The notes under the pieces were generated by a model, which worked only from the letters and a program-made list of their open reading frames with translations, searched no databases and was not told the origin of the DNA. From Escherichia coli (GTDB lineage: Bacteria > Pseudomonadota > Gammaproteobacteria > Enterobacterales > Enterobacteriaceae), in assembly GCF_003334335.1 (NCBI RefSeq), contig NZ_QOWQ01000023.1: a stretch of DNA of 64,000 nt; one strand, 5' to 3'. Made by a program: the position numbers and the translations under genes. This document shows, one piece after another, positions 43,315 through 47,401 of the stretch; positions within the stretch are counted from its first letter, which is position 1, and each line of letters starts with the position of its first letter.

Positions 43315-43339
43315 GTACTACCTGCGCTAGCGCAGGCCA

Positions 43340-43620
43340 GAAGAGGCGCGTTGCCCAAGTAACGGTGTTGGAGGAGCCAGTCCTGTGATAACACCTGAGG
43401 GGGTGCATCGCCGAGGTGATTGAACGGCTGGCCACGTTCATCATCGGCTACAGGGGCTGAATCCCCTGGGTTGTCACCAGAAGCGTTCGCAGTCGGGCGT
43501 TTCGCAAGTGGTGGAGCACTTCTGGGTGAAAATAGTAGCGAAGTATCGCTCTGCGCCCACCCGTCTTCCGCTCTTCCCTTGTGCCAAGGCTGAAAATGGA
43601 TCCCCTGACACGAGGTAGTT
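43340..43620 (+). promoter_or_regulatory. lysine riboswitch (L-box) and expression platform in the lysC 5' leader
   Basis: Long structured leader with conserved AGAGGCGC...GGAGGAGCCAG...GAGGGGG...GGTGGAGCAC elements ending at the lysC RBS. Confidence 0.85.
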
Positions 43621-44970
43621 ATGTCTGAAATTGTTGTCTCCAAATTTGGCGGTACCAGCGTAGCTGATTTTGACGCCATGAACCGCAGCGCTGATATTGT
43701 GCTTTCTGATGCCAACGTGCGTTTAGTTGTCCTCTCGGCTTCTGCTGGTATCACTAATCTGCTGGTCGCTTTAGCTGAAGGACTGGAACCTGGCGAGCGA
43801 TTCGAAAAACTCGACGCTATCCGCAACATCCAGTTTGCCATTCTGGAACGTCTGCGTTACCCGAACGTTATCCGTGAAGAGATTGAACGTCTGCTGGAGA
43901 ACATTACTGTTCTGGCAGAAGCGGCGGCGCTGGCAACGTCTCCGGCGCTGACAGATGAGCTGGTCAGCCACGGCGAGCTGATGTCGACCCTGCTGTTTGT
44001 TGAGATCCTGCGCGAACGCGATGTTCAGGCACAGTGGTTTGATGTACGTAAAGTGATGCGTACCAACGACCGATTTGGTCGTGCAGAGCCAGATATAGCC
44101 GCGCTGGCGGAACTGGCCGCGCTGCAGCTGCTCCCACGTCTCAATGAAGGCTTAGTGATCACCCAGGGATTTATCGGTAGCGAAAATAAAGGTCGTACAA
44201 CGACGCTTGGCCGTGGAGGCAGCGATTATACGGCAGCCTTGCTGGCGGAGGCTTTACACGCATCTCGTGTTGATATCTGGACCGACGTCCCGGGCATCTA
44301 CACCACCGATCCACGCGTAGTTTCCGCAGCAAAACGCATTGATGAAATCGCGTTTGCCGAAGCGGCAGAGATGGCAACTTTTGGTGCAAAAGTACTGCAT
44401 CCGGCAACGTTGCTACCCGCAGTACGCAGCGATATCCCGGTCTTTGTCGGCTCCAGCAAAGACCCACGCGCAGGTGGTACGCTGGTGTGCAATAAAACTG
44501 AAAATCCGCCGCTGTTCCGCGCTCTGGCGCTTCGTCGCAATCAGACTCTGCTCACTTTGCACAGCCTGAATATGCTGCATTCTCGCGGTTTCCTCGCGGA
44601 AGTTTTCGGCATCCTCGCGCGGCATAATATTTCGGTAGACTTAATCACCACGTCAGAAGTGAGCGTGGCATTAACCCTTGATACCACCGGTTCAACCTCC
44701 ACTGGCGATACGTTGCTGACGCAATCTCTGCTGATGGAGCTTTCCGCACTGTGTCGGGTGGAGGTGGAAGAAGGTCTGGCGCTGGTCGCGTTGATTGGCA
44801 ATGACCTGTCAAAAGCCTGCGGCGTTGGCAAAGAGGTATTCGGCGTACTGGAACCGTTCAACATTCGCATGATTTGTTATGGCGCATCCAGCCATAACCT
44901 GTGCTTCCTGGTGCCCGGCGAAGATGCCGAGCAGGTGGTGCAAAAACTGCATAGTAATTTGTTTGAGTAA
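43621..44970 (+). CDS. lysC: lysine-sensitive aspartokinase III LysC (449 aa)
   Basis: MSEIVVSKFGGTSVADFDAMNRSADIVLSDANVRLVVLSASAGITNLLVALAEG... Confidence 0.97.
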   Translation: MSEIVVSKFGGTSVADFDAMNRSADIVLSDANVRLVVLSASAGITNLLVALAEGLEPGERFEKLDAIRNIQFAILERLRYPNVIREEIERLLENITVLAEAAALATSPALTDELVSHGELMSTLLFVEILRERDVQAQWFDVRKVMRTNDRFGRAEPDIAALAELAALQLLPRLNEGLVITQGFIGSENKGRTTTLGRGGSDYTAALLAEALHASRVDIWTDVPGIYTTDPRVVSAAKRIDEIAFAEAAEMATFGAKVLHPATLLPAVRSDIPVFVGSSKDPRAGGTLVCNKTENPPLFRALALRRNQTLLTLHSLNMLHSRGFLAEVFGILARHNISVDLITTSEVSVALTLDTTGSTSTGDTLLTQSLLMELSALCRVEVEEGLALVALIGNDLSKACGVGKEVFGVLEPFNIRMICYGASSHNLCFLVPGEDAEQVVQKLHSNLFE

Positions 44971-45222
44971 ATACTGTATGGCCTGGAAGCTATATTTCGG
45001 GCCGTATTGATTTTCTTGTCACTATGCTCATCAATAAACGAGCCTGTACTCTGTTAACCAGCGTCTTTATCGGAGAATAATTGCCTTTAATTTTTTTATC
45101 TGCATCTCTAATTAATTATCGAAAGAGATAAATAGTTAAGAGAAGGCAAAATGAATATTATCAGTTCTGCTCGCAAACGAATTCCCGTACACTGAACTCT
45201 CTGGCTCACTGAGGGCACCATC

Positions 45223-45495
45223 ATGGCACTCCCCCGTATTACCCAAAAAGAGATGACTGAACGCGAGCAGCGTGAACTTAAAACACTGCTGGATCGGGCG
45301 CGGATTGCGCATGGTCGCGTATTGACCAACTCCGAAACCAACAGCATTAAGAAAGATTACATCGATAAATTAATGGTTGAGCGTGAGGCTGAAGCGAAAA
45401 AAGCCCGCCAGTTGAAGAAAAAGCAGGCTTATAAACCGGATCCTGAAGCGTCATTTAGCTGGTCAGCAAATACGTCGACGCGCGGCAGGCGCTAA
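45223..45495 (+). CDS. yjbD: YjbD (DUF3811-type) protein, 90 aa
   Basis: ORF MALPRITQKEMTEREQRELKTLLDRARIAHGRVLTNSETN... Confidence 0.8.
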   Translation: MALPRITQKEMTEREQRELKTLLDRARIAHGRVLTNSETNSIKKDYIDKLMVEREAEAKKARQLKKKQAYKPDPEASFSWSANTSTRGRR

Positions 45496-45543
45496 TCCAC
45501 AATCAACGCCTGAGATTTTCACTCGTCAGTGTGAACACAATTT

Positions 45544-45582
45544 TCCCCTCACCCTAACCCTTTTCCCGAAGGGGCGAGGGGA
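45544..45582. repeat. GC-rich imperfect palindrome between yjbD and rluF
   Basis: TCCCCTCACCC ... GGGGCGAGGGGA, 10 of 11 bp complementary with a 16-nt loop; no adjacent U-tract. Confidence 0.5.
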
Positions 45583-45627
45583 CTGTCCGGGCACTTTTGG
45601 GCCGTTTTCATCAGTCTGAGGCGTTAA

Positions 45628-46500
45628 TCAGCGCCCCTTCTTTTTACGCCCCGGCGAGGTAAAACGCTTACCGTTGGACGCCGGGCGACCGCCTTTTTCC
45701 GCCGTTTTTTCCATCTTAACGACTGGACGTTTGATGCCCGCTGTTTTCGGTTTGGCCTTCGCTTTAGGTTTTACCTCGGAAGAGGAATTTTCAATGAGCT
45801 TAAAGAGGTCGATTAACTCATCGTCGGTTAAATCGCGCCATTCCCCCAGCGGAATGCCGCTTAAGCTAACGTTCATGATGCGCGTGCGTTCCAGCTTTTT
45901 CACTTCATAGCCGAAATGCTCGCACATGCGCCGGATCTGACGGTTCAGCCCCTGCACCAGGGTAATGCGGAAGACAAACGGCGCTTCTTTTTTAACTTTG
46001 CACTTTTTGGTCACTGTCCCGAGGATTGGCACCCCCGCACTCATGCCGCGAATAAACTCCTCGGTAATCGGTTTATCGACCGTCACCAGATACTCTTTCT
46101 CATGATCATTGCCAGCACGCAGGATCTTATTCACCAGATCGCCGTGATTGGTGAGGAAAATCAGCCCCTGGGAGTCTTTATCCAGGCGGCCAATCGGGAA
46201 CACGCGTTTGCTGTGGTTAACGAAATCGACAATGTTATCGCGCTCGCCATCTTCGGTGGTGCTTACAATACCAACGGGCTTGTTCAGGGCGATAAGTACC
46301 AAATCTTCGGCTTCCCGAGGTTCAATCAACTGACCGTTTACTTTCACAACGTCGCCGGGTTTCACCTGATCGCCAATGGTGGCTCGCTTGCCATTAAGGA
46401 ACACATTGCCTTGCTCGATATAGCGATCCGCTTCGCGGCGTGAGCAAATTCCGCTTTCGCTGATGTATTTATTTAAACGGACTGATGAGTCGGGCAGCAT
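45628..46500 (-). CDS. rluF: 23S rRNA pseudouridine synthase RluF (290 aa)
   Basis: S4 domain ([29 protein letters not shown]) plus RsuA-family catalytic motif [12 protein letters not shown]; basic C-terminal tail. Confidence 0.93.
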
Positions 46501-46711
46501 AAATTCTCCTGTAAAAAACGGAATATACCGTACCTTTGGGTTGATAAAAAATAGTCATGAGCGAACTATTTGTTATTTCCATTGGCTTGAATTCGTTACC
46601 TGCTCAAATCACTTTCCAGAAGCAATGTGCGACATCGTGAGCCATGTCAGTAAGTGGTTAAATTCGCAGTGGTAGCATGCCTCCCGTGATTTCTTACTAA
46701 CCGGAGAAGTA

Positions 46712-47401
46712 ATGGAACTGCTTTTATTGAGTAACTCGACGCTGCCGGGTAAAGCCTGGCTGGAACATGCACTGCCGCTAATTGCTGAACAGTTGCAGGG
46801 TCGCCGCTCAGCGGTGTTTATCCCTTTCGCTGGCGTAACGCAGACCTGGGATGATTACACAGCGAAAACGGCTGCGGTTCTCGCTCCGCTGGGTGTTTCT
46901 GTCACCGGTATTCATAGCGTTGTCGATCCCGTTGCCGCGATTGAAAATGCTGAGATCGTGATTGTCGGCGGCGGGAATACTTTCCAGTTGCTGAAACAGT
47001 GCCGCGAGCGCGGGCTGCTGGCACCAATTACTGACGTGGTTAAACGTGGCGCTCTGTATATTGGCTGGAGCGCAGGCGCTAACCTTGCTTGCCCAACTAT
47101 TCGTACCACCAACGATATGCCGATTGTCGATCCGCAAGGTTTCGATGCGCTAAATCTGTTCCCGCTGCAAATCAACCCGCACTTCACCAACGCGCTGCCG
47201 GAAGGCCATAAAGGTGAAACCCGTGAGCAGCGTATTCGCGAACTGCTGGTCGTCGCGCCAGAACTGACGATTATTGGTCTACCGGAAGGTAACTGGATCA
47301 CAGTGAGTAAAGGTCACGCTACGCTGGGTGGCCCGAACACCACTTATGTGTTTAAGGCTGGTGAAGAAGCGGTTCCGCTGGAAGCTGGTCACCGTTTTTA
47401 A
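46712..47401 (+). CDS. pepE: alpha-aspartyl dipeptidase PepE (229 aa)
   Basis: [30 protein letters not shown]...[11 protein letters not shown]. Confidence 0.93.

Follow-up and report, generated by a model that had tools for sequence, protein, structure and literature searches.

A Box C repeat copy inserted between the convergent yjbD and rluF genes of Escherichia coli, with a yjbD-strand RNA 3' end at the base of its hairpin

The genes yjbD and rluF converge in the 64,000-nucleotide stretch of E. coli DNA analysed here (hereafter the window). yjbD, which encodes a DUF3811 protein, lies at 45223-45495 on the + strand and ends in the stop codon TAA at 45493-45495. rluF, which encodes a 23S rRNA pseudouridine synthase, occupies 45628-46500 on the - strand, its stop codon being read as TCA on the + strand at 45628-45630. 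The two stop codons are separated by an intergenic region of 132 bp. From 44000 to 47000 the locus is identical to the reverse complement of E. coli K-12 MG1655 (NC_000913.3), and window positions (w) were converted by the checked relation K-12 position = 4276854 - w. A permissive Rfam search of 45000-46000 returned only chance-level matches, the top one being Antizyme_FSE with 18 bits against a gathering score of 40. A curated RNA family for the yjbD/rluF spacer was therefore rejected.

A GC-rich imperfect palindrome occupies 45544-45582 between the two genes, just where a first-pass annotation of the sequence had noticed it. Its outer arms, TCCCCTCACCC at 45544-45554 and GGGCGAGGGGA at 45572-45582, can be read on both strands; they are 11 nt long each and complementary at 10 of 11 positions (91%). 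The stem thus stands as first described, but the loop, previously given as 16 nt, measures 17 nt between the arms. As RNA, the palindrome folds with -19.7 kcal/mol on the + strand (z = -2.2) and with -23.0 kcal/mol on the - strand (z = -3.0). The outer stem is the minimum-free-energy structure on both strands, as it also is in each copy of the family that was folded. Searched as the pattern CCCCTCACCC-N-GGGNGAGGGG, the motif has a single match in the window, against no match in 100 shuffled sequences.

No run of U follows the stem on either strand, the + strand continuing with CTGTCCGG and the - strand with AAAATTGT. The terminator scan, which requires a U-run within 0-2 nt of a GC-rich stem, did not call this stem; its calls were 45620-45635 and, weakly, 45585-45602. 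The palindrome shares with intrinsic terminators a stable GC-rich stem-loop located 3' of a stop codon, but a U-tract is found only after a second hairpin at 45620-45645. An intrinsic terminator was thus rejected on sequence, in line with the first-pass annotation. The same annotation had set the palindrome apart from REP elements; indeed, the GCCGGATG-type palindromic unit is absent from the sequence, and a REP/BIME identity was rejected for this reason.

The palindrome is almost certainly a copy of Box C, the dispersed E. coli repeat also called PIT element or TMECO, and is as such an ordinary element of an already described repeat family. The earlier guess of a different small repeat family was right, but the family is not the "unknown" one that had been supposed. 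Box C was described in the 1990s, from 1992 onwards, and characterised further between 2000 and 2015 (PMC4666352, PMC2267715). Holder et al. (2015, PMC4666352) equate TMECOs with Box C and with the PIT elements of Hoyne and Maher (2000/2002), and tabulate 23 TMECO triplex motifs for MG1655 (their Table 1). Box C also appears among the known E. coli stem-loop families of Petrillo et al. (2008, PMC2267715), with 22 copies by their own model and 32 from the literature.

The assignment rests on the 36-nt TMECO/PIT core at 45545-45580, which reads CCCTCGCCCC-TTC-GGGAAAAGGG-TTA-GGGTGAGGGG on the - strand (the G-rich strand) and belongs to type A. It is identical at 33 of 36 positions to the commonest K-12 consensus, CCCTCGCCCC-TTT-GGGGAGAGGG-TTA-GGGTGAGGGG (PMC4666352 Table 1; TMECO #7, #11 and #15), and its blocks 1 and 3 and its type-A loop (second loop TTA) match this consensus exactly. 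The copy conforms to the three-block consensus of Box C, which can be written CCCTC(G/T)CCCC - loop - GGGGAGAGGG - TTA or CCG - GGGTGAGGGG. Given as an oligonucleotide, the 36-nt K-12 variant from yjbD/rluF is CCCTCGCCCCTTCGGGAAAAGGGTTAGGGTGAGGGG.

A genome-wide search for further copies had been suggested in the first-pass annotation. With the 55-nt element as the query, matches were sought in 5426 complete E. coli genomes; the median number per genome was 18, and K-12 had 21. As 89,651 of the 89,703 matches were chromosomal and 52 were on plasmids, the element is a dispersed, multi-copy chromosomal repeat, although no further Box C copy was found inside the window itself. The motif is therefore not unique, nor is it remote from any transcript end (see below), the two findings that would together have spoken against its being a meaningful element.

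Similarity to recognised members also extends beyond the core. The copy upstream of fabI (TMECO #9, PMC4666352) matches the yjbD/rluF copy in the core and in the flanks TTTTCCCC...GGGGACYGT; the two are identical in TTTTCCCC...GGGGAC, the aligned units being TTTTCCCCTCACCCTAACCCTCTCCCCAGAGGGGCGAGGGGACCGT for fabI and TTTTCCCCTCACCCTAACCCTTTTCCCGAAGGGGCGAGGGGACTGT for yjbD/rluF. Moreover, the copy between fimH and gntP (TMECO #23) is ~85% identical to the yjbD/rluF copy over 82 nt. This homology in the flanks indicates that we are dealing with a repeat unit rather than with a chance motif. True REPs can be seen elsewhere, such as upstream of the Box C copy at fimH/gntP.

With the other members of the family, the yjbD/rluF copy thus has in common the three-block architecture (a C-rich block, a G-rich block, the TTA loop and a second G-rich block), the flanks, the chromosomal location and the number of about 20 copies per genome, as well as an intergenic position, here with the stop codons of yjbD and rluF on either side. 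It differs in its middle block, GGGAAAAGGG instead of GGGGAGAGGG, with a reduced triplex potential, in its omission from the 23 published K-12 TMECOs, and in being present in only about one third of E. coli genomes.

The middle block, at 45558-45567, reads CCCTTTTCCC on the + strand where the consensus has CCCTCTCCCC. The two differences are transitions, G-to-A on the G-rich strand, and they leave the outer hairpin unaffected. In the triplex model, 7 of 10 triads are correct in this copy against 9 of 10 in the consensus of the "A mm" type, triads 4-6 being broken, and the changes are thus predicted to weaken the proposed DNA triplex. The copy falls outside the strict TMECO definition, an ITxF intrastrand triplex with at most one imperfect triad of 10. 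Located at K-12 4,231,274-4,231,309, it is missing from the TMECO Table 1, whose nearest entries are at 4,070,452 and 4,314,285. Given that the TMECO search tolerated one mismatch only (PMC4666352), the drop from 9 to 7 correct triads is the likely reason for the omission from the 2015 list. Another long allele of the locus (~190 genomes, among them strain HCP6S3_I1, L005) retains the consensus middle block CCCTCTCCCC, indicating that the K-12 form is derived and has decayed.

The Box C copy is carried by a lineage-specific insertion of 121 bp at 45498-45618, recognised by comparing long and short alleles of the locus. The allele alignment places a left target copy, AGGCGCTAATC, at 45487-45497 (+ strand), where it contains the yjbD stop codon TAA, and a right target copy, AGGCGTTAATC, at 45619-45629 (+ strand), which is identical to the left one at 10 of 11 positions. 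The whole 132-bp spacer is thus made up of the 121-bp insert and an 11-bp target duplication. A 381-nt query spanning the locus found full coverage in 1773 of 5426 E. coli genomes (about a third), and in most of the remaining genomes the locus is shorter by exactly 132 bp. In three short-form strains, NC101, M18 and EC42405, no spacer separates yjbD from rluF as annotated; their junction reads ...GGCAGGCGC TGA immediately followed by TTA GCGCCCCTTCTTTTT, a small palindrome that includes both stop codons and is followed by a T-run.

To establish the direction of this change, the orthologous locus was taken from 80 Enterobacteriaceae species representatives, 78 of which yielded both genes. Among these 78 other species, 76 have stop codons that adjoin directly or overlap over 4 nt (GTTAAC), and all six other Escherichia loci sampled, including those of E. 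albertii and E. whittamii, have zero spacing. As abutting or overlapping stops prevail across the outgroup species, the long form at yjbD/rluF is very probably a derived insertion.

The insert is composite in its distribution. Its left 48 nt are single-copy and confined to the 1774 long-form genomes, and no donor for this part was found in the E. coli genomes searched. In contrast, the right-hand extension CTGTCCGGGCACTTTTGGGCCGTTTTCATCAGTCTG (45583-45618, + strand) is common to a subset of Box C copies: it recurs at fimH/gntP, alx/sstT and yihR/yihS, and partly at pstB/pstA. In the fimH/gntP and alx/sstT copies, the similarity ends at ...CATCAGTCTG, which is the exact insertion boundary at yjbD/rluF. 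The best inverted match between the ends of the insert is 12/14 (shuffle p ~0.01) and partly overlaps the target sequence, and its internal direct similarities are weak (shuffle p 0.06). We claim neither terminal inverted repeats nor a template-switch origin.

Like MITEs such as ERIC (IRU), the insert is short, non-coding, strain-polymorphic and situated at gene 3' ends, and it is flanked by a target duplication with a matching empty site (AGGCGCTAATC/AGGCGTTAATC around 121 bp). It differs from them in that it has no convincing terminal inverted repeats, is repeated elsewhere only in part rather than as full-length copies, and has no known cognate transposase. No clean empty sites were found at other copies: fimH/gntP and yihR/yihS are length-polymorphic, and their short alleles keep fragments or carry replaced sequence. 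The Box C copies at zntA/tusA and aaeR/tldD are fixed, occurring in >94% of genomes. Any mobility of the Box C family is putative.

The insertion left two small hairpins at the stop codons. The ancestral one, GGCGTT-AATC-AGCGCC followed by CCTTCTTTTT, was identified by the terminator scan and by folding at 45620-45645 on the + strand (stem 45620-45635), where it covers the rluF stop codon and the last Lys codons. It is weak, with -7.9 kcal/mol (z = -1.5). Of 78 other Enterobacteriaceae species, 76 share this hairpin and T-run over both stop codons. The first-pass annotation had proposed that this smaller hairpin may be the real yjbD terminator. The structure is real, and its ancestry and conservation make it a reasonable candidate intrinsic terminator for yjbD-sense transcription; however, the curated list of 3' ends contains no end there. 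The other hairpin is a small rebuilt one at the yjbD stop codon, formed jointly by the left target copy and the first part of the insert: an inverted repeat, CAGGCG...CGCCTG (82% complementary), followed by AGATTTTCA, at 45486-45512 on the + strand.

Published Term-seq data place a dominant yjbD-strand RNA 3' end at K-12 position 4231270 (minus strand), that is, at window position 45584 on the + strand, in cells grown in LB to an OD600 of ~0.4 (Adams et al. 2021, Supplementary file 1, PMC7815308). The sequence string published for this end is ...GGGGCGAGGGGAC[T]GTCCGGGCAC (PMC7815308). The end, recorded in one of three growth conditions and in one curated dataset, lies 2 nt past the foot of the Box C stem; its distance to the yjbD stop codon is 89 nt. 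It is labelled "antisense rluF" only because this distance exceeds the 50 nt from an ORF within which an end is classed as "primary" (PMC7815308). The Term-seq comparison recommended for yjbD in the first-pass annotation thus locates an end directly at the palindrome. No other curated end falls in the yjbD/rluF spacer, including the second hairpin, and the list lacks an rluF-sense end at this stem even though the rluF strand forms the stronger hairpin (PMC7815308). The supplements of TERMITe contain no yjbD or rluF entries.

Moreover, a bicyclomycin-sensitive Rho region is reported on the yjbD strand at 4231091, which corresponds to 45763 in the window (Rho score 4.3, p = 3e-13; PMC7815308) and lies 179 nt beyond the 45584 end on the same strand. 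A second Rho region was found on the rluF strand, inside antisense yjbD. Both regions were called from 800-nt windows, and their positions are accordingly coarse (PMC7815308).

The yjbD/rluF copy is not alone in this respect. For three more Box C copies of K-12, a curated 3' end coincides with the hairpin or follows it closely, at 3781065, 632098 and 847200. The end at 3781065, downstream of lldD, occupies the same position as the yjbD/rluF end, directly after GGGGAC at the following nucleotide, and is classed as "primary". By a rough estimate, fewer than 0.1 such ends would be expected by chance among the 1175 curated ends of the LB 0.4 condition. Rho-dependent E. coli transcripts are known to end just past stable stem-loops without U-tracts, which shield them from PNPase and RNase II (Dar and Sorek 2018, PMC6061677). 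In the yjbD case, three features of such a protective 3' stem-loop come together, namely a stable U-less stem and, in the published data, an adjacent 3' end and Rho read-through beyond it. An RNA stability element, one of the options considered in the first-pass annotation, is directly supported by the 3' end 2 nt after the stem.

What has been established, namely the family of the element, the polarity of the insertion, the stability of the hairpin and the site of the 3' end, can be joined in a single course of events. The 121-bp insertion brought in the Box C copy, duplicating 11 bp of the ancestral stop-codon hairpin and placing the Box C stem-loop in the yjbD 3' UTR of K-12-type strains. 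Transcription in the yjbD sense would pass through the stem and stop further on, whether at the older hairpin with its T-run (45620-45645), through Rho acting inside antisense rluF, or in both ways. Exonucleases acting from 3' to 5' would then trim the RNA back to the GC-rich stem, leaving the end 2 nt after it. We infer that the end arises by such trimming rather than by termination, and that the mRNA is stabilised as a result. Taken as a whole, from the insertion to the trimmed and protected transcript, we consider this account probable, if by a modest measure.

By analogy with REP elements, the most likely role of the Box C stem-loop is therefore that of a block to 3' exonucleases. The likeness to REP/BIME stabilisers of mRNA 3' ends lies in a GC-rich extragenic palindrome that is located in a 3' UTR and has no U-tract; the protective stem-loops of Rho-dependent transcripts (PMC6061677) likewise show a steady-state 3' end just past the stem, with Rho termination further downstream. 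The Box C copy differs from REP/BIME elements in that its sequence is unrelated to the GCCGGATG type, it has no associated RAYT transposase, and its protection against exonucleases is putative. Since two thirds of E. coli genomes are without the element, any benefit must be dispensable, and the insertion may be neutral.

The 45584 end could also be a true termination point, with the Box C hairpin acting as a non-canonical, U-less or factor-assisted terminator of yjbD. The closeness of the end to a stem of -19.7 kcal/mol would fit this idea, as would the equal relative position of the "primary" end at the lldD copy. We nevertheless find it unlikely: the stem has no U-tract and was passed over by the terminator scan, PIT elements had neither promoter nor terminator activity in earlier reporter assays (summarised in PMC4666352), and the bicyclomycin-sensitive read-through downstream shows that polymerases pass the element. 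Still less probable at this locus is an action at the DNA level, the function that Hoyne and Maher as well as Holder et al. (PMC4666352) suggested for the family. In this view the G-rich strand, while the DNA is replicated or transcribed, would fold into an intrastrand purine-motif triplex, stall polymerases and destabilise the locus. Consensus TMECO oligonucleotides do form very stable triplexes in vitro, as judged by CD and NMR (PMC4666352), TMECO loci vary between E. coli strains more than control intergenic regions, and the yjbD/rluF copy is itself a presence/absence polymorphism. However, this polymorphism is a gain and not a deletion through instability, and the copy, with its three central triads disrupted, falls short of the criterion for TMECO listing. 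In addition, DMS footprinting in vivo yielded no sign of triplexes, and the duplex wins in vitro once the complementary strand is present. A G-quadruplex is a very remote prospect. The sequence GGG-AAAA-GGG-TTA-GGG-TGA-GGGG fits the G3+N1-7 x4 rule, its four G-runs survive the two G-to-A changes, and it might act as folded DNA or as rluF-sense RNA. Yet the NMR spectrum of the consensus TMECO, with 18 imino signals, argues against a quadruplex (PMC4666352), the G-runs are engaged in pairing with the neighbouring C-rich block (-23 kcal/mol as RNA), and the published map shows neither an rluF-sense 3' end nor another signal at the element (PMC7815308).

The alternative that we take most seriously, while holding it to be possible rather than probable, is that the insert is a selfish or neutral passenger: a 121-bp non-autonomous, MITE-like or copy-pasted element that landed in a terminator hairpin and is merely tolerated at gene 3' ends. 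The clean filled and empty sites, the 11-bp direct repeat (10/11) and the derived state of the long form would all be expected of such an element. So would the ~85% identity of core and right extension to the fimH/gntP copy up to the shared ...CATCAGTCTG boundary, the decay of the middle block, and the placement of the 12 K-12 Box C loci examined, of which 7 are in convergent, 5 in tandem and none in divergent intergenic regions. It is harder to reconcile with the left 48 nt being single-copy, with the weakness of the terminal inverted repeats (14 nt, shuffle p ~0.01), with the family having no associated transposase, with the short alleles at fimH/gntP and yihR/yihS not being clean empty sites, and with other copies being fixed in >94% of genomes. 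A passenger origin is compatible with the preferred account of a trimmed and protected yjbD transcript, as the element could have been co-opted after its insertion. REP/BIME elements bind gyrase, IHF and RAYT transposases, and a corresponding role of Box C as a binding site for a nucleoid protein, gyrase or a repeat-specific transposase might be imagined. This analogy is the one point in its favour, nothing specific to Box C adding to it, and no binding data for Box C were found in the family literature (PMC4666352); we regard such a role as highly improbable.

A wider and doubtful proposal would extend the yjbD/rluF case to the whole family: Box C elements may be mobile now or have been so recently, inserting with target duplication into small terminator hairpins at gene 3' ends and then being kept because their very stable stem provides the upstream mRNA with a defined, exonuclease-resistant 3' end. 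If this were true, a family that has been without either for 30 years would be given both an origin and a function, the "genomic instability" reported at Box C loci would represent the gain and loss of insertions, and yjbD/rluF would be the cleanest example of a filled and an empty site.

It should be noted that Box C already figures among the catalogued repeats of E. coli and that the present copy lies in the best-studied bacterial genome. What is added here is a K-12 copy, that of yjbD/rluF, which is missing from the 2015 catalogue, together with an unambiguous polarity for a Box C polymorphism. Here, the variation is an insertion with target duplication between ancestrally abutting stop codons, whereas published work has taken variation of this kind to be deletion or instability. 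Furthermore, published 3'-end maps put RNA ends directly at the foot of several Box C hairpins, and while the family literature centres on DNA triplexes, these ends point to a simple, REP-like protection of mRNA 3' ends.

At 12 K-12 loci (L002, L088, L090–L098 and the window), the intergenic contexts of Box C were convergent in seven cases, tandem in five and divergent in none, these being raw counts from a small sample. Within the limits of those 12 loci, the distribution hints that the 3' ends of genes, rather than promoter regions, are where Box C may be tolerated or retained.

Some Box C copies have in common a right-hand extension of 36–40 nt, GACYGTCCGrGCAC-TTTTT-GaC-TTTGTCATCAGTCTG, outside the 36-nt core to which the literature refers. 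It occurs at fimH/gntP (L098), yihR/yihS (L096), alx/sstT (L088) and pstB/pstA (L095), and at positions 45583–45618 of the window, and in three of these extended copies it is directly followed by a terminator-like hairpin. Most other Box C copies have only ~10 nt in common past the core, and this short segment pairs with the left flank to form a longer palindrome.

At two of the loci with the extension, fimH/gntP (L098 compared with L100/L102) and yihR/yihS (L096 compared with L101), there are common alleles that are ~70 bp shorter and are devoid of the Box C core. These shorter alleles either retain short fragments (GACAATCCGAA or an end of the form ...ATCAGnCTG) or have replaced sequence, and at neither locus do they represent clean empty sites.

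Two Box C-like variants, CCCTCTCACCCTAACCCTCTCCCCGGTGGGGCGAGGGGAC and CCCTCTCCCCTATGGGGAGAGGATTAGGGTGAGGGG, are absent from the list of 23 TMECOs (PMC4666352), indicating that the K-12 family comprises more than 23 copies. They lie at ~632,050–632,098 (+ strand) and ~847,150–847,200 (− strand) of NC_000913.3, as located from the Term-seq strings in supplementary file 1 of PMC7815308, and in each of them the same data map an RNA 3' end to a hairpin or to the position just past it (632,098 and 847,200). At yjdP/phnP a second, shorter palindrome, TCTCCCTCTCCCCATTGGGGTGAGGGGCGA, is found ~40 nt past the listed Box C copy (L097, ~400–520; K-12, ~4,314,285–4,314,400); it looks like a partial partner, resembling the inverted pairs of type A and type B described in the literature.

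The long form of the yjbD/rluF locus exists as two alleles, the K-12 type (~1580 genomes) and the E. coli C/HCP6S3 type (~190 genomes). Their inserts (window 45498–45618 vs. L005, 361–611) diverge at ~11 of 132 positions, whereas the gene ends on either side differ at only 1–2 of ~250. This points either to fast evolution of the insert or to a long history of the two alleles.

Across Enterobacteriaceae, the stop codons of the convergent genes yjbD and rluF abut (e.g., TGA directly followed by TTA) or have a 4-nt overlap (GTTAAC), as observed in the short E. coli alleles (L003, L004 and L006) and in other species (L007–L086); the corresponding region of the window is 45487–45645. One small palindrome, GGCGC...GCGCC, encloses both stop codons, and the T-run on its 3' side is coding sequence for the last Lys codons of rluF; coding sequence of both genes thus makes up a terminator-like hairpin. 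In the long form of E. coli, yjbD ends in TAA and rluF in TGA, and this assignment is reversed in the short form (yjbD TGA, rluF TAA). Elsewhere in the window, the known lysine riboswitch upstream of lysC is annotated in the matching RefSeq record and lies at ~43333–43529 on the + strand.
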